In this document: positions 2,494 through 63,156 of the stretch, piece by piece
Layout of the letters: every line of letters begins with the position of its first letter
Numbering within the stretch: position 1 is the first letter of the stretch
NCBI GenBank assembly: GCA_029008095.1
Contig: JAQXJB010000006.1
Span: 3,135-67,134 of the forward strand
Source: Clostridiales bacterium
GTDB lineage: Bacteria; Bacillota; Clostridia; Oscillospirales; Oscillospiraceae
Direction of reading: 5' to 3'
DNA: 64,000 bases
Made by a program: the position numbers and the translations under genes
Notes under the pieces: model-generated
Databases searched by the model: none
What the model saw: the letters and a program-made list of their open reading frames with translations, nothing else
Told to the model about the DNA's origin: nothing

Positions 2494-3600
2494 ATGAAGC
2501 TTTGTGTTCCCTGTCTTTTCGGGCTTGAGGGTCTGGCGGCGGACGAGCTGAAGTACATGGGTATGAGCGGCGTTGCCGCCGAGACCGGCCGTGTACTCTT
2601 CGACGGCGAGGCTGCCGACATCGCCAAAGCAAACATCCGTCTGCGCACCGGCGAGCGCGTGCAGATACTCATGGGCGAATTTGACGCCCGTGAATTCAAC
2701 GACTTTTTTGAGGGCGTTTACGCTCTGCCCTGGGAAGATTTTATTCCCAGGGACGGTGAATTTCCCGTAAAGGGTCACTGCCTGAACAGCACTCTTATGT
2801 CCGTCCCCACCTGCCAGGGAATGATAAAAAAGGCTGTGGCCAAGCGGCTGGGCGGAAAATACGGCATCAGCCAGCTTCCCGAGACCGGCAGCCGCTATCA
2901 GATACGCTTCTCCATAATGAACGACCGTGCATCCATTTATCTGGACACCAGCGGCGCAGCCCTGCATAAGCGCGGCTACCGCCCCAACGCCAATCTCGCG
3001 CCCCTTCGCGAAACTCTGGCGGCGGCGATGGTGAAGCTATCCCGCTTTAAGGGACGCGATATTTTCTGCGACCCCTTCTGCGGCAGCGGCACCATAGCCA
3101 TTGAAGCCGCGCTGGCTGCCATAAACCGCGCACCCGGCGTAAACCGCCGCTTTACCGCTGAAAGCTGGAGCTGCTTTGACCGTAGTATATGGAAGGACGC
3201 CCGCGACGAAGCCAGAGCCGCCGAGTTCCGGGGCAATTACCGCATTTTCGCCTCCGATATCGACCCGGCCTGCATAGATATTGCCAGAGAAAACGCCCGC
3301 CGGGCCGGAGTTTCCGAATTTATCCTTTTCTCCTGCGCGGATGCGCTGGCCTTTACTCCGCCCGCAAGCGGCAGGGGCATTATCATGGCAAATCCACCCT
3401 ACGGCGAACGCCTTATGGACGTGAAACAGGCTGAGGAGCTTTACCGCTCTCTTGGCCGCACCTGGCGCAAGCTGGACGACTGGAGCTTTTATATTCTCAC
3501 TTCTGACCTTGATTTTGAAAAATGCTTCGGGAAGAAGGCTGACAAGCGCCGCAAGGTCTATAACGGCATGATACAATGTCAGCTTTACATGTATAAATAA
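2494..3600 (+). CDS. THUMP-domain class I SAM-dependent RNA methyltransferase
   Basis: Start moved to the internal ATG at 2494 (MKLCVPCLFGLEG...), 4 nt after the prmA stop. THUMP-like N-terminus, then DPFCGSGT and the NPPYG catalytic motif. Confidence 0.8.
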   Translation: MKLCVPCLFGLEGLAADELKYMGMSGVAAETGRVLFDGEAADIAKANIRLRTGERVQILMGEFDAREFNDFFEGVYALPWEDFIPRDGEFPVKGHCLNSTLMSVPTCQGMIKKAVAKRLGGKYGISQLPETGSRYQIRFSIMNDRASIYLDTSGAALHKRGYRPNANLAPLRETLAAAMVKLSRFKGRDIFCDPFCGSGTIAIEAALAAINRAPGVNRRFTAESWSCFDRSIWKDARDEARAAEFRGNYRIFASDIDPACIDIARENARRAGVSEFILFSCADALAFTPPASGRGIIMANPPYGERLMDVKQAEELYRSLGRTWRKLDDWSFYILTSDLDFEKCFGKKADKRRKVYNGMIQCQLYMYK

Positions 3601-47140: not shown

Positions 47141-48403
47141 TCAGAATATTTCCCGTGCGGCACGAATGATCTGTTCCACTTCCCCATCGGTATGGGCGGC
47201 GGAAAGGAACATGGCCTCGAACTGACTGGGCGCGGCGTAAACACCCCGCTGAAGCAGGCCGCGATACCAAACCGCAAAGCGCGCCAAATCCGAAGATTTG
47301 GCCTGCTCGTAGCCTGTGACAGGCTGCGCTGTGAAGAACACTGTGAGAAGAGAGCCGACACGATTTACCTGCGCCGGAATACCTGACAGAGCCTCTTTCA
47401 GTCCCTCCTGCAGCATTGCGCCTCTTCTCTCCAGTTCCGAATAAATCTCGGGGGAGCTCTGAAGGATACGCAGTTGGGCAAGGCCGGCTGCCATAGCCAC
47501 GGGATTACCGGACAGCGTTCCGGCCTGATACACCGGTCCAAGAGGAGCTACCAGCTCCATCAGCTTTCTGCTGCCGCCATAAGCGCCCACCGGCATGCCG
47601 CCGCCAATTATCTTGCCGTAGGTGGCCAGATCCGCACGGACGCCGTAATACTCCTGCGCACCGCCGGGAGCAAGACGGAAGCCGGTGATGACCTCGTCAA
47701 ATATCAGCAGGCTGCCATGCTCGTCACACAGGCTGCGCAGTCCTTCCAGGAAGCCAGGCTGCGGCGGTACCACGCCCATATTGGCAGCCACCGGCTCTAC
47801 TATAATGGCAGCTATCTGGCCGGGGTTGGCCTGAAGCAGACGGCGCACACTGTCAAGGTCATTGTAATCCGCCGTCAGCGTATCGCCAGCCATCTCTGCC
47901 GGAACTCCGGCAGAGTCCGGCGCGCCGCCGGTCAGCGCGCCCGAACCGGCCTTGACCAGCATGGAGTCGGAGTGTCCATGATAGCAGCCGGCAAATTTGA
48001 TGATTTTGCTGCGTCCGGTCGCGCCTCTCGCAAGGCGCAGCGCGGACATGACCGCCTCTGTACCGGAATTGACCATGCGAACCATTTCCATCCCGGTCAT
48101 AGAGCAGACCAGCTCCGCCATCTCCACCTCTATGGCCGTAGGAGCGCCAAAGCTGAGTCCCTTCTTTATAGCAGTCTGAACCGCCTGCTCCACCGCCTCA
48201 TTGCAGTGTCCCAAAATCAGAGGCCCCCAGGAGCAGATCAGGTCTATGTACTCCGCGCCATCCACGTCCCAGACGCGGCTGCCGCAGCCCTTTTCCAGAA
48301 AACGCGGGTATGTTCCCACAGCGCGGCAAGCCCGCACAGGGGAGTTGACGCCGCCGGGCAGCACCTTTTGAGCTGCGCCAAACAGTTCTTCGGAGCGTGT
48401 CAT
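47141..48403 (-). CDS. hemL: glutamate-1-semialdehyde 2,1-aminomutase
   Basis: Start at the ATG forming an ATGA overlap with the hemB stop. Motif LPGGVNSPVRA. Confidence 0.92.
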   Translation of the reverse strand: MTRSEELFGAAQKVLPGGVNSPVRACRAVGTYPRFLEKGCGSRVWDVDGAEYIDLICSWGPLILGHCNEAVEQAVQTAIKKGLSFGAPTAIEVEMAELVCSMTGMEMVRMVNSGTEAVMSALRLARGATGRSKIIKFAGCYHGHSDSMLVKAGSGALTGGAPDSAGVPAEMAGDTLTADYNDLDSVRRLLQANPGQIAAIIVEPVAANMGVVPPQPGFLEGLRSLCDEHGSLLIFDEVITGFRLAPGGAQEYYGVRADLATYGKIIGGGMPVGAYGGSRKLMELVAPLGPVYQAGTLSGNPVAMAAGLAQLRILQSSPEIYSELERRGAMLQEGLKEALSGIPAQVNRVGSLLTVFFTAQPVTGYEQAKSSDLARFAVWYRGLLQRGVYAAPSQFEAMFLSAAHTDGEVEQIIRAAREIF

Positions 48404-58795: not shown

Positions 58796-60168
58796 TTTTC
58801 TACTCCTTCTCCGTCTTTTTCTTTGAAGAGCATGGCTTTTTCCAGAAAACGTCCGGCCGCCTCCGGTTTGGAGGCAAAGTGGAAGTGGGGAAACCCGGCG
58901 TACAGGCTTTCCGTGGCAATACCGGCCTTCCAGTGCCGCGCCGACTGCGGCTTTCTGGCGGTAAAGCTCTGTCCCGGCTCCGTGCTGTCCCAATAATGAA
59001 ACTCATGAGCCGGCATCGTATCGCCTGCGTGAAACAGGAGACTGTCCGTTTCCGCAGTCAGCGTCACATACCCAAAGCGGCTGAGCTTTCCCGTGGGGAA
59101 CGCATCCGCATCCAGAACTCCGACCATTGGCCAGGGCATTCCGTCACCATCCCGCAGAGTCTTATGCAGGTACATGAAGCCGCCGCATTCGGCAATGGTG
59201 GGAAGTCCTTCGGATACCGCTCTGTAAATGGAGCAGCGCATAGCTTCGTTCTCCGCAAGCTGTCGGGCATATAGCTCCGGGTAGCCTCCTCCCAGATAGA
59301 GTCCATGCACGTTCTCCGGCAGCGCGCTGTCGGTCAGAGGAGAAAAATCCACAAGCTCCGCTCCCATATCCCTCAGGATTTGAAGCGAAGCCTCATAATA
59401 AAAGCAAAAGGCCTTATCCCGAGCAACGGCGATCCTCACCTTTTTCGCTTCAGACACCTTTGTAGGGAGCTTAGTCTCCAGCTCAGGCGCCTGCTGAGCC
59501 AGAGCCAGCAGGCCGTCCAGATCCAATGTCTTTTCCGCCTGCTCCGCCAGCCTGTCCAGCTTCTGCTGCAGATCGGATATTTCCGCAGCCGTCACCAGCC
59601 CCAGATGGCGGCTCTCAATGGAACAGTCCTCCATCACCGGCAGATAGCCCATCACCGGCAGGCCGGTTTCCCGGGAAATGGTCTCAGCCAAACGGGGATA
59701 CAGCATCGGGGACACACGGTTCAAAATAACACCGGCTATCCGGCTGGGCTGCCGGAAGCTTTGAAAGCCCTGAACCTCGGCTGCCGCGGAAATGGCTCTG
59801 CCCCTGCCGTCCACAACCAGCACTGCCGGAGTTTCCGTTGCCTCCGCAAGGGCGTAGGCAGAAGCATCCACGCTCATGGCAATGCCGTCGTAATAGCCCA
59901 TAGCGCCTTCCAGAATCGTCACATCCGCCTGACGGGAACATTCCTCAAGCAGATTTCTGGTCGTGGCGCGGGAAAAAAAGAACATATCCAGATTGCAGCT
60001 CCGGGTACCCAGAACCTGGCTGTGGAACATGGGGTCGATATAATCCGGCCCGGATTTGCAGGCCATCGGCATCAGTCCGCGCCTGAGCAGCGCGCGCAGC
60101 ACCGCGCAGGTCACCGTGGTCTTACCGCTGCCGGAGGCTGGGGCGCAGAACATGAGACGCGGCGTCAT
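58792..60168 (-). CDS. cbiA: cobyrinate a,c-diamide synthase
   Basis: Start at the ATG forming an ATGA overlap with the cbiET stop. Motifs ASGSGKTTVT and ECGGFMYL. Confidence 0.9.
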   Translation of the reverse strand: MTPRLMFCAPASGSGKTTVTCAVLRALLRRGLMPMACKSGPDYIDPMFHSQVLGTRSCNLDMFFFSRATTRNLLEECSRQADVTILEGAMGYYDGIAMSVDASAYALAEATETPAVLVVDGRGRAISAAAEVQGFQSFRQPSRIAGVILNRVSPMLYPRLAETISRETGLPVMGYLPVMEDCSIESRHLGLVTAAEISDLQQKLDRLAEQAEKTLDLDGLLALAQQAPELETKLPTKVSEAKKVRIAVARDKAFCFYYEASLQILRDMGAELVDFSPLTDSALPENVHGLYLGGGYPELYARQLAENEAMRCSIYRAVSEGLPTIAECGGFMYLHKTLRDGDGMPWPMVGVLDADAFPTGKLSRFGYVTLTAETDSLLFHAGDTMPAHEFHYWDSTEPGQSFTARKPQSARHWKAGIATESLYAGFPHFHFASKPEAAGRFLEKAMLFKEKDGEGVEK

Positions 60169-61367
60169 TGCCTTCCCTCCCCGGATATGATCCATACGGG
60201 ATTCTGCCCCATCATCATGTGGTACTGACCCAGAGTCTTTGCCTGTGCCGCCGATATCTGCGTCACGTCAACATTCGCCAGTTCAAACTGCTTCATGCAG
60301 TTCAGGGCATCGGTGAGGCTCTCCAAGCTGACCGCCGTAACGCATATCCGCGCCGCGGGATTCTTCTCAAGAACCACTTTGAATATCCCTGCCATTGAGC
60401 CGGAGGAGCCGCCTATGAACACGCAGTCCGGACGGGGCAGCTCATCCAGCGTTTCCGGCGCTTTGCCCTCTATCACCCGCAGATTCCACAGCCCAAGCGC
60501 TTCCCGGTTCTGACGTATCAGCTCCAGCGCCTCCGTTTCCTTCTCCACCGCCCATACCTGACCCTGCCAGGCCGCCATAGCGCAGGCGGCGGACACAGAG
60601 CCGGTACCGGCGCCAACGTCCCAAACCACACTGTCCGGCTTTACTTCCAGCCGGGCAACCGCCAGCAGGCGGATATTTTCCTTGGTCATAGGCGTCTTGC
60701 CCCGGATAAGCTGGTCATCCCAAAGGCAGGGCGCTCCCTGTTTCCAGCCGGTGGGTGCGGGATTTACTGCCAGAACCACTGACAAATCGTCAAATTTCTC
60801 ACCGGCCAGCTCCGCCGCCGTGCCAGAAACAATGCTCTCGTCAGGATATGACAGACGCTGACCCACGTGAATCTGCACCTGTCCCAGGCCGGCATCGGTT
60901 AGCTGGGCGCACAGCTCCGCCGCCGTGCAGTTGCTTCCGGTCAGCAGAAAGGTCTTGCCGTGGGATTGTATCTCGCCCACGGCGTTGGCTGTACGGCCAT
61001 GAACGGAAACCAGCCGCGCATCCTGCCAACTGGTATGAAGCCGGGCACAGAAATAGTTAAGGGAGGATATACCGGGGATGGTTTCCACCCGCAGACCATC
61101 CAGCATGTCATAGAGCCGGAAAGCTCCGCTGTAAAAGCCGGGGTCGCCGGAAAGCAGCACGGCGCTGTCGCCTTCATAGGCTTTTACAGCCTCCGCGATA
61201 TCCTCCGCACGGATCAGCGCAAGCTTACGCCCCGGATGCTCCGGAAATGCGTCCAGCATTCTCCGGGCGCCGATCAGCAGCCCGCATTCCCCAATACGCC
61301 GGGCAGCGCCCTGGGTCAGGGTGTCCGGGTTTCCCATGCCTATGCCAATGAGATAACAGGTTTTCAT
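60165..61367 (-). CDS. cobalt-precorrin-6B/7 methyltransferase CbiE-CbiT fusion
   Basis: Start at the ATG 6 nt after the GGAGG of repeat copy E (MKTCYLIGIGMGNPDTLT). C-terminal DVGAGTGSVS. Confidence 0.88.
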   Translation of the reverse strand: MKTCYLIGIGMGNPDTLTQGAARRIGECGLLIGARRMLDAFPEHPGRKLALIRAEDIAEAVKAYEGDSAVLLSGDPGFYSGAFRLYDMLDGLRVETIPGISSLNYFCARLHTSWQDARLVSVHGRTANAVGEIQSHGKTFLLTGSNCTAAELCAQLTDAGLGQVQIHVGQRLSYPDESIVSGTAAELAGEKFDDLSVVLAVNPAPTGWKQGAPCLWDDQLIRGKTPMTKENIRLLAVARLEVKPDSVVWDVGAGTGSVSAACAMAAWQGQVWAVEKETEALELIRQNREALGLWNLRVIEGKAPETLDELPRPDCVFIGGSSGSMAGIFKVVLEKNPAARICVTAVSLESLTDALNCMKQFELANVDVTQISAAQAKTLGQYHMMMGQNPVWIISGEGRQ

Positions 61368-61371
61368 TATA

Positions 61372-61504
61372 ATCCTCCATGCGGCAACACCGCACAAATA
61401 ATCTTTAAGAATCTCCCCCGCATGGAGGATTTTTGCCATCATCGCCGCTTACCCGAAGGGGCGAGGCGATGGGCTTTAAATAATATAGTGTGATTTTCAC
61501 ACGA
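61372..61504 (-). repeat. structured intergenic repeat, copy E (entire cbiJ-cbiET spacer)
   Basis: Full unit. The cbiJ TGA stop (61497-61499) lies within the GTGTGA arm of hairpin 3. Confidence 0.85.
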
Positions 61505-62243
61505 TATCCTCGGTGAGTTTTTTCAAAAGTGCTTCAAGCTCCAGACCCGTTTCCGTGGTGGGACGCCGAATTACCAGCAGCTTAGCGCCAACTGCCTGCG
61601 CCGCCTCCGCTTTTTCTCCGAAGCCTCCGGCACGTCCCGTGTCCTTTGTTACGAGAACGGCGCCGTCAATATCCTGAAGCGTCGCTATGTTCATCTGCTT
61701 TGAAAAGGGTCCCTGCATACATATAATGTGAGACGCAGGGTATCCCAACTCAAGAGCGCAGCTCAGGCTCTCCAGACTCGGCAGGACACGAACCCATATC
61801 CGCTTCTGGAAATCCGGTACTGAGGCAAAAACCGCAAGATCCTTGCTCCCGGTAGTCAGCAGAACATTGCCCGGCATATCCGCCAGCAGCTCCGCAGCCT
61901 CAGCCGAACTTTCCGCCGTTATCACATTTTCAGCGGCTTCGCTCGGTCTCAGCAGACGCTCATAGTGAAGTCCGGCGGTTTGCGCCGCTGCCCGAATATT
62001 CTCACTGACCAGAGCGGCATAGGGATGGGTGGCGTCCACCACGCAGTCATAGCCGCGGTCCATCTCCCGGATCATGGCATCCTTATCCATGCGCCCCGTG
62101 AGTACCGTGAGGCCACTTTGAGGTTCCAGCAGATCGCGTCCGTACTCCGTGGCAACACAGCAGGTCACTGAATGTCCCGCCTCTGCCAGCCGGCACGCCA
62201 GGGCATGTCCCTCCGTCGTGCCGCCGAACAAAAGCACCTTCAT
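61497..62243 (-). CDS. cbiJ: cobalt-precorrin-6A reductase
   Basis: 248 aa, MKVLLFGGTTEG... Confidence 0.85.
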   Translation of the reverse strand: MKVLLFGGTTEGHALACRLAEAGHSVTCCVATEYGRDLLEPQSGLTVLTGRMDKDAMIREMDRGYDCVVDATHPYAALVSENIRAAAQTAGLHYERLLRPSEAAENVITAESSAEAAELLADMPGNVLLTTGSKDLAVFASVPDFQKRIWVRVLPSLESLSCALELGYPASHIICMQGPFSKQMNIATLQDIDGAVLVTKDTGRAGGFGEKAEAAQAVGAKLLVIRRPTTETGLELEALLKKLTEDIV

Positions 62244-62971
62244 CGCTGCAGATACCCCCTGGGCGTAACCATATGGCCGCCGATCACCTGAGTCTGGGAG
62301 TTTCCGACAAACACGGTTGTAAACATATCGACCTGAGCCTCACGAAGTTCTTTCAGGCTCAGAATGGTGTAGCTCTCTCCCTCACGGCCTATCTGGCTTA
62401 CATAGCCGCAGATCGTCTGAGGGTCTTTCGTTTCCAGCAGGATATCGCAGGCCTTTTGCAGGTAATCCTTTCTCTTGTGGCTGGAGGGGTTATAGAGACA
62501 GAGGACAAAGTCCGCCTGAGCCGCTGCCCGAAGCCGAGCCTCTATCTTTTCCCATGGCGTCATCAGATCCGAAAGGGAAACAAGACAAAAATCGTGCATC
62601 AGCGGTGCGCCCAGCACGGAAGCGCCGCCGCAGGCCGCCGTGATGCCGGGGATAACCTCAAGCTCAACCTGGGGCCATTGGGTGGACAATTCATAGCACA
62701 GCCCCGCCATACCGTATACGCCGGGGTCGCCGGAGCAGACCATAGCCACGGTCTTGCCGGAGTCCGCCATTTCAAGCGCCATCTGGCAGCGCTCGGTCTC
62801 TTTTCTCATGGGTGTGGAAAGCAGCTCTTTATGGGAATAGGCCTGTCTGATAAGGTCTATGTATACGGTGTATCCGACGATCACGTCGGAAGCCTCCAGC
62901 GCCTCCGCCGCACGGCCGGTCAAGTCACGCCCACCGCCGGGGCCAAGTCCAATGATATACAGTTTCTTCAT
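62240..62971 (-). CDS. cbiH: cobalt-precorrin-3B C17-methyltransferase
   Basis: Start at the ATG 6 nt after the GGAGG of repeat copy F (MKKLYIIGLGPGG). Motif VCSGDPGVYGMA. Confidence 0.9.
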   Translation of the reverse strand: MKKLYIIGLGPGGGRDLTGRAAEALEASDVIVGYTVYIDLIRQAYSHKELLSTPMRKETERCQMALEMADSGKTVAMVCSGDPGVYGMAGLCYELSTQWPQVELEVIPGITAACGGASVLGAPLMHDFCLVSLSDLMTPWEKIEARLRAAAQADFVLCLYNPSSHKRKDYLQKACDILLETKDPQTICGYVSQIGREGESYTILSLKELREAQVDMFTTVFVGNSQTQVIGGHMVTPRGYLQR

Positions 62972-62975
62972 AAAA

Positions 62976-63110
62976 ATCCTCCATGCGGCAGAACCGCACC
63001 AAATATTCATTAAAAATCCCCCTGCATGGAGGATTTTTGCCATCATCGCCGGTTGCCCGAAGGGCGAGGCGATGGGCTTTTTAATAATATTGTGTGATTT
63101 TTCACACTAT
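62976..63110 (-). repeat. structured intergenic repeat, copy F
   Basis: Full unit between cbiG and cbiH. Confidence 0.85.
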
Positions 63111-63156
63111 CCTCCATGCGGCAGAACCGCACCAAATAGTTATCGAAAATCTCCCC
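63111..63156 (-). repeat. structured intergenic repeat, partial copy G (first 46 nt only)
   Basis: CCTCCATGCGGCAGAACCGCACCAAATAGTTATCGAAAATCTCCCC. Overlaps the last codons and stop of cbiG. Confidence 0.75.

Follow-up and report, generated by a model that had tools for sequence, protein, structure and literature searches.

A probable insertion of a structured interspersed repeat between the Shine-Dalgarno sequence and the start codon of cbiET in a clostridial cobalamin operon

The spacer that separates cbiJ from cbiET in the cobalamin operon of a Clostridiales bacterium is very probably an inserted copy of an interspersed repeat of ~134 nt, non-coding and orientation-specific. The repeat would have landed between the Shine-Dalgarno (SD) sequence of cbiET, situated within the last part of cbiJ, and the ATG of cbiET, splitting an ancestral ATGA overlap. 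This conclusion is grounded in observed features of the spacer: its membership of a family with a high copy number in the genome, the position of the copies at start codons, the overlap retained by related operons, and a three-hairpin fold with compensatory changes. In the mechanism that we propose, the landing of the element between SD and ATG would separate the overlapping stop and start codons, its 5' end would stop the upstream reading frame, and its 3' end would bring a new GGAGG 6 nt before the ATG. Such insertions would be tolerated because the element carries stop codons at its 5' end and an SD at its 3' end. The new SD would nevertheless be clamped by the element's own anti-SD in a 14-bp helix, and cbiET would then need de novo initiation.

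The window analyzed here, a stretch of 64,000 nucleotides of contig JAQXJB010000006.1, carries its hem and cbi genes on the minus strand, identified with NCBIfam models as cbiG, cbiH, cbiJ, cbiET, cbiA, cbiB, cobD, cbiP, cbiC, cbiKL, hemA/sirC, hemC, cobA/hemD, hemB and hemL. A cobalamin riboswitch (RF00174, 102 bits; L081 5246-5451, minus strand, equivalent to G000:C6:72245-72450) is located 5' of cbiM-cbiQ-cbiO-cbiD, and the whole cbi/hem cluster, ~25 kb, looks like one B12-controlled operon behind this riboswitch. Between positions 49393 and 54678 (minus strand), three genes are fusions according to NCBIfam domain matches: cobA-hemD (491 aa), a hemA of 473 aa that carries a siroheme-synthase N-terminal (SirC-like) domain, and cbiK-cbiL (~488-503 aa).

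Gene junctions within the operon are tight. All eight ATGA overlaps proposed by the sequence-only reading were found (at 48403, 51749, 53167, 56772, 57821, 58792, 60165 and 62240), and the remaining junctions stay, as it had stated, within 16 nt: overlaps of 16 and 10 nt and gaps of 6 and 4 nt, the 4-nt value holding with the cbiKL ATG at 54633, while the longest ORF gives a 41-nt overlap instead. The only long spacers in the hem/cbi operon of the window are those of cbiJ-cbiET (129 nt) and cbiG-cbiH (168 nt), and their assignment to a repeat was also confirmed, nhmmer placing units at 61371-61503 and 62975-63156.

The cbiJ-cbiET spacer is filled by a full unit of variant A (61371..61503, minus strand; nhmmer C6:64505-64637, model positions 2-134, E=1.2e-37), with 92% identity to the family consensus. 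It lies between cbiJ, encoding a cobalt-precorrin-6A reductase (61497..62243, minus strand; 248 aa; TIGR00715, 182.7 bits; junction alignment), and cbiET, encoding a fused CbiE/CbiT methyltransferase (60165..61367, minus strand; 400 aa; TIGR02467 and TIGR02469). The cbiJ stop codon TGA (61497-61499) is the final triplet of the GTGTGA arm (61497-61502) of hairpin 1, and the GGAGG at 61374-61378 stands 6 nt 5' of the cbiET ATG (61365-61367); at this junction, the element gives cbiJ its stop and cbiET its ribosome binding site (RBS), in line with the initial reading. Within the 3' end of cbiJ, comparison with relatives identified GAGGAT (61506..61511, minus strand) as the relic of the native cbiET SD, now parted from the ATG by the element.

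Two further junctions of the operon carry copies. The 168-nt cbiG-cbiH spacer, delimited by the cbiG stop (63140-63142) and the cbiH start (62969-62971), corresponds by nhmmer and sequence inspection to the repeat at 62975..63156 (minus strand), composed of a full unit (62975-63109) and a 47-nt partial 3' module (63109-63156), the latter providing the four C-terminal codons of cbiG (GDFR) together with its TAA stop (63140-63142). The third copy, a variant B with a degenerate hairpin 1, is located just past the right end of the window in the 108-nt cbiD-cbiF spacer (L081 1050-1190; G000:C6:68049-68189), with the cbiD TGA in its hairpin 1 region and a GGGGG 6 nt before the cbiF GTG.

The N-terminus of cbiET aligns with its relatives from residue 1 and, because these begin with MKTCYLIGIGMGNP, the start was placed at the ATG at 61365-61367. 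An alternative start at ATG 61442, providing a 25-codon in-frame extension, was rejected: relatives start downstream, no SD precedes this codon, and it is embedded in the stem of hairpin 2. As the frame is open over these 25 codons (61368-61442), ORF finders lengthen cbiET to 425 aa, and cbiH is likewise over-extended, to 268 aa from the ATG at 63046. Gene callers are prone to extending ORFs into copies of the repeat, cbiET and cbiH both receiving spurious upstream ATGs.

The sequence-only reading had taken the spacer for an insertion that replaced an ancestral overlap, and proposed a comparison of orthologous junctions. This comparison supports it: a 4-nt overlap was found in 16 of the 20 closest relatives, and an ATGA at cbiJ/cbiET with the SD lying within cbiJ was identified in eight related operons (L001, L002, L003, L005, L006, L008, L009 and L017), the ancestral state being deduced from operons that share just 57-75% identity in CbiJ and up to 84% in CbiET. 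The junction of these relatives reads CTCACC-GGAGG-N6-ATGA, with the GGAGG within the 3' end of cbiJ (e.g. CTCACC-GGAGG-GGTAGT-ATGA), and that of the window reads CTCACC-GAGGATAT-[CGTGTGA...GGAGGATT]-ATA-ATGA. The distance from CTCACC to the ATG is 11 nt in relatives, and also 11 nt in the window once the element is removed. The length of CbiJ is kept, with a C-terminus in ...KLTEDIV instead of the ...KLTGGVV of relatives (GGVV to EDIV). Searching 80 related cbi loci with nhmmer retrieved no copy of the element, and the relatives' cbiG-cbiH junction is similarly short, formed either by a TAG within the SD plus 7 nt or by an ATGA overlap.

That the spacer might instead be ancestral to the operon, its similarity to other copies reflecting convergence or a shared leader, is scarcely credible. 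A conspecific contig with an empty cbiJ-cbiET junction was not retrieved from metagenomes, where the best match was 75% identical, a negative that would agree with this reading. It is nonetheless contradicted by the overlap in the eight related operons, by the 92% identity of the copy to a 76-member family located before unrelated genes, and by the pairs of empty and filled orthologous sites known for other copies. The congeners that carry the element (G002, G003 and G005) are without cbiJ.

Different inserts were observed at the same cbiJ-cbiET junction in two other lineages. In an uncultured Clostridia MAG (CAMEIU010000001.1; L004 3236-3378), the junction carries a different modular repeat of ~143 nt, whose 5' part has an inverted copy near the 3' end, with a UUCG hairpin and an end in GGAGGTATCT-ATG; modules of this repeat have at least 66 matches in that genome. 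In a Flavonifractor sp. MAG (L023 ~3225-3325), an 88-nt insert forms one long near-perfect hairpin (-66 kcal/mol including flanks), followed by GAAGGAGGATGCGT-GTG.

Copies of the element were sought by BLAST and iterated nhmmer in the whole assembly (2.27 Mb, 55 contigs, 53% G+C). This approach recovered 76 copies of the ~134-nt unit, among which 52 are full length, with E-values down to 1e-42. Of the 76 copies, 49 place a GGAGG or GGGGG at a distance of exactly 6 nt from the start codon (ATG or GTG) of a long ORF, and those off this register are mostly upstream units of tandem pairs; both the copy number and the 6-nt register are far beyond chance. The family is orientation-specific and positioned between the SD and the start codon of ~55 unrelated genes. 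On its left side, GTGTGA is usually preceded at once by AT(A/C) and, before that, by a run of purines resembling an SD (purines enriched at -9 to -4, T at -2 and A/C at -1), and on its right side, the 3 nt before the ATG, as well as the ATG itself, are host sequence that varies across copies. The resemblance of this left flank, a purine run plus AT, to the GGAGGAT of the element's 3' end suggests recombination or template switching anchored on the SD.

The supply of stop codons also recurs in the family. The 5' end of the family, TAGTGTGA, provides stop codons in two of the three frames within 8 nt (TAG / GTG-TGA). An upstream ORF of at least 100 codons on the same strand ends between -15 and +25 nt of the element start in 22 copies, and in ~11 of these the element's own TAG or TGA is used as the upstream stop; the joint supply of stop and RBS is therefore recurrent and not peculiar to cbiJ-cbiET. 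Ten sampled downstream genes have unrelated functions (AEC transporter, MoeA, SodC, RsmB, Crp-like regulator, Opp ATPase, CoaD, RapZ, HIT and DegV), which argues against a regulon.

Shorter forms of the element occur as well. Two deletion derivatives of ~60 nt (G000:C4:11288, minus strand, and G000:C33:12946, plus strand) have hairpin 1 joined directly to the last local hairpin and the SD; devoid of hairpin 2 and of the anti-SD arm, they still abut the start codon. A preference of variant B, with its CCCCC anti-SD, for GGGGG targets was considered and rejected, since the left flanks of variant B copies resemble, by eye, ordinary SDs of the GGAGG type.

Each folded copy adopts three hairpins, with minimum free energies (MFE) between -56 and -68 kcal/mol and z-scores between -4.8 and -5.9 (-55.6 kcal/mol and z = -4.8 for the cbiJ-cbiET copy). 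In the latter, hairpin 1 (GTGTGA-AAA-TCACAC; 61488..61502, minus strand; sequence and MFE fold) has a 5' arm that ends in the cbiJ TGA, helix 1 being 92.6% paired in the pair counts; hairpin 2 (61435..61474, minus strand; MFE fold and compensatory changes) consists of a GC-rich stem with a UUCG cap (GCCCAUCGCC...GGCGAUGAUGGC). Helix 3 joins the internal anti-SD arm AAUCCUCCAUGCGG (61418..61431, minus strand) to the SD arm CCGCAUGGAGGAUU (61371..61384, minus strand), which contains the GGAGG, through 14 bp that are present in both the MFE and centroid structures. In variant B, helix 3 is preserved through another sequence (AAUCCCCCGUUUCGCCG / CGGCGGAAUGGGGGAUU).

Over 61 copies, 94.1% of cells are paired, versus 29-50% in slid controls, and 11 pairs display two-sided changes. 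Compensatory changes were observed in hairpin 2 (GC to UA and vice versa 16 times, CG to GC 16 times, UA to AU 6 times) and in helix 3 (UA to CG 17 times, coupling the U/C of the anti-SD to the A/G of the SD), most of them separating just two or three sublineages. Variant B has a systematic U-G wobble, a sign that it is the sense strand that folds, and the existence of chimeric copies shows that the modules evolve separately. At gathering score, Rfam returned no match in the window, the sole nearby match being the upstream cobalamin riboswitch. No consensus sigma-70-like promoter was detected on the sense strand of the copies scanned; terminator-like matches on this strand were limited to two weak short stems (hairpin 1 and the anti-SD/decoy stem), and hairpin 2 was not flagged as a terminator of the antisense strand.

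The predicted consequence of this fold was estimated as the cost, over the structural ensemble, of making positions -13 to +2 around the start codon accessible. This RBS opening cost reaches 10.6 kcal/mol for cbiET in the window, close to the median of all element-bearing genes (10.4 kcal/mol), compared with a median of 5.7 kcal/mol for 194 native GGAGG genes of this genome and with 3.1-8.0 kcal/mol at the cbiET sites of relatives. With the cbiJ stop now 129 nt before the cbiET start, termination-reinitiation coupling between the two genes is presumably broken, and cbiET would be initiated de novo at a clamped SD, predicting a lower or differently controlled translation. Since neither a consensus promoter nor a strong terminator was found on the sense strand of the element, riboswitch control and transcriptional read-through are expected to persist. 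The same clamp precedes the housekeeping genes coaD, rsmB and rapZ, implying either efficient opening of the clamp in vivo or an effect smaller than the thermodynamic estimate suggests.

An alternative local hairpin, UGCGG-UGUUG-CCGCA (61380..61394, minus strand), can be read from the sequence and might compete with the base of helix 3; its equivalent in variant B is formed by another sequence, GCCGC-UCAUU-GCGGC. A translational switch would be another reading of the element: the anti-SD would alternate between a neighboring G-run decoy, in which case the SD is free, and the SD, which is then masked, the element acting on ~55 genes as a riboregulator dependent on temperature, factors or kinetics. 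Variants A and B each have the two alternative pairings, in their own letters (CCUCC/GGGGAG plus UGCGG/CCGCA for A, CCCCCG/CGGGGG plus GCCGC/GCGGC for B), the decoy pairing of congeners is a 7-bp AAUCCUC/GAGGAUU stem, and the net opening cost is moderate (~10 kcal/mol), below the energy of the full helix. We nevertheless consider a switch improbable, as all copies folded have the masked form as their MFE and centroid structures, no Rfam family and no conserved core resembling a ligand-binding site were found, and the downstream genes have no common function. Moreover, copies are 82-96% identical over their full length, which is typical of a recent spread and not of an old regulon.

Domestication of the element as an intercistronic stabilizer or processing site, although more plausible than a switch, is doubtful too. 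Its hairpins would then shield the upstream cbiM-cbiJ mRNA from 3' exonucleases, or offer an RNase site, leading to unequal expression on either side, and this role would be compatible with an origin by insertion. The presence of copies at three junctions of one riboswitch-controlled operon (cbiD-cbiF, cbiG-cbiH and cbiJ-cbiET), the high stability of the hairpins (-56 to -68 kcal/mol per unit) and the co-transcription of the units expected from their lack of a consensus sense promoter and of a strong terminator are all consistent with it, and such activity is known for REP and ERIC (PMC3184786). By contrast, the element is found as often in 5' leaders after divergent promoters as within operons, its position is conserved relative to start codons and not to the 3' ends of genes, and three sites in 25 kb only mildly exceed the genome-wide density.

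BLAST detected the element only within the genus, in 4 of its 7 genomes, and a covariance model built from 61 copies revealed relatives in at least 28 of 151 genomes of the family and at least 24 of 134 genera, counts that are lower bounds, 22 candidates having been scored per genome. These remote copies preserve the same layout. No match to the element was obtained in plasmid and phage collections.

Several orthologous sites are filled in the congener G005 and empty in this genome. Others differ between species in the variant or partial module that they carry, suggesting that the same gene starts were hit repeatedly or underwent conversion. At three sites (G000:C52:148868-148939, G000:C28:6472-6605 and G000:C19:149262-149503), the congeners G003, G005 or G002 have a full variant A, and this genome has a 5'-truncated variant B fragment, the 3' module only, or a tandem pair.

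Target-site duplications (TSD) were sought over 39 copies by comparing the left flank with the 3 nt that precede the ATG; matches of 2-4 nt occur as often as expected from shuffling, and no TSD is therefore apparent. Terminal inverted repeats (TIRs) are absent, the ends TAGTGTGA... and ...GCATGGAGGATT not being mutual inverted copies, and an inverted repeat of 13-14 bp is internal to the 3' module and not terminal. Since the 3 nt between the element and the ATG are unlike those of empty sites, and the left junction varies from "SD plus 2-4 nt" to "directly before the ATG", the events bear more resemblance to replacement or copying, with SD/ATG microhomology as the anchor, than to cut-and-paste.

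No candidate mobilizer emerged from the genome. A longer copy with an internal ORF, as expected for an autonomous partner, was not found among these genomes, which are incomplete MAGs, and PF01548, the signature of IS110-type genes, had no match in the genome. The only Y1/RAYT-like gene (G000:C10:469-843, minus strand; 164-aa ORF; PF01797, 28 bits, full length) was rejected as the mobilizer, being flanked by different GTAG-tagged REPs (GGCGGAGGCGCGCCTCCGCC / GTAGGGCAGGGGCGCGCCCCTGCC units) and not by this element. Arrays of GTAG-tagged GC-rich REP palindromes (GTAGGGCAGGGGCGCGCCCCTGCC and GGCGGAGGCACGCCTCCGCC) occupy the flanks of this ORF on contig C10, to ~1400.

Among known bacterial repeats, the closest functional analogues appear to be the Neisseria REP2 and Borrelia IR repeats, with MIRUs also close. 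REP2 and Borrelia IR-A/IR-B are RBS-carrying repeats without TIRs, located directly upstream of ORFs (Parkhill 2000; Morelle 2003; PMC3184786). The present element shares with them a size of 120-150 bp, the absence of TIRs, internal stem-loops, tens of copies per genome and the supply of an RBS to an ORF. REP2, however, carries a promoter and an ATG, while the element has no consensus promoter and ends 3 nt before the host ATG; unlike REP2, it also combines an anti-SD:SD clamp, a location inside operons and upstream stop codons, the likeness being a functional one. MIRUs are short intercistronic repeats of polycistronic operons, whose ends overlap the flanking stop and start signals (Supply 1997; PMC3184786). 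As with MIRUs, the element is intercistronic in operons, has empty sites in relatives and is sometimes found in tandem. MIRUs are nonetheless shorter (40-100 bp), with tetranucleotide direct repeats and short ORFs that keep translational coupling, whereas the element has no conserved ORF, no TSD and leaves a 129-nt untranslated gap. A coupling ORF of the MIRU type was not found at this junction, as cbiJ stops in hairpin 1 and the 25-codon in-frame stretch is devoid of an SD and not conserved among copies. Compared with MIRU ends, the stop is supplied by the element here and in ~10 other copies, and it is an SD, not a start codon, that the element brings.

Like Correia/NEMIS, ERIC, BOX, RUP and REP/BIME sequences, the element is small, structured, non-autonomous and co-transcribed, modular with partial units and mixed variants, and would be able to alter mRNA stability or translation. 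Correia and RUP elements have TIRs and TSDs, and REPs are short GC-rich palindromes mobilized by RAYTs. To our knowledge, none of these families is positioned at a fixed 6-nt SD-to-ATG register in one orientation. In contrast to REP/BIME (a 20-40-nt GC-rich palindrome with a GTAG/CGTC tag and a flanking RAYT), the element spans 134 nt and comprises three different hairpins. It resembles the PATEs derived from IS200/IS605 through its subterminal hairpins, its strand specificity and the absence of both TIR and TSD, but differs by the lack of a conserved 4-5-nt target at the left end, where flanks are SD-like and variable, and a TnpA with matching ends was not found. With neither TIRs nor TSD, it also departs from a classical MITE. 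The fixed 6-nt register, the anti-SD clamp, the 5' stop codons and the absence of promoter, ATG, internal ORF and TSD set the element apart from REP2 and MIRU, and a full-text literature search found no description of such an element in Clostridia.

Beyond the insertion itself, we put forward tentatively, as an unlikely scenario, that the family could be a homing repeat recognizing the window between SD and start codon, either through SD/ATG microhomology or through pairing by its own anti-SD. It would then replace native initiation regions with a portable cassette made of a stop and a clamped SD, bringing ~55 genes, including three steps of the B12 operon, under one damped or condition-dependent mode of initiation, and uncoupling junctions so that their genes are initiated independently.

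In long biosynthetic operons, the stoichiometry of the enzymes is believed to be set by translational coupling at ATGA overlaps. Here, a selfish repeat would break this coupling at three junctions of a tightly coupled, riboswitch-controlled cobalamin operon, with no gene inactivated, offering a natural experiment on the importance of translational coupling. Bearing its stop codons on the 5' side and its SD on the 3' side, the element appears pre-adapted to land harmlessly at gene starts, of which it provides a clean example. Together with the unrelated hairpin repeats found at the same junction in two other lineages, this family points to the interval between SD and start codon as a recurrent point of entry for repeats in gut Clostridia.
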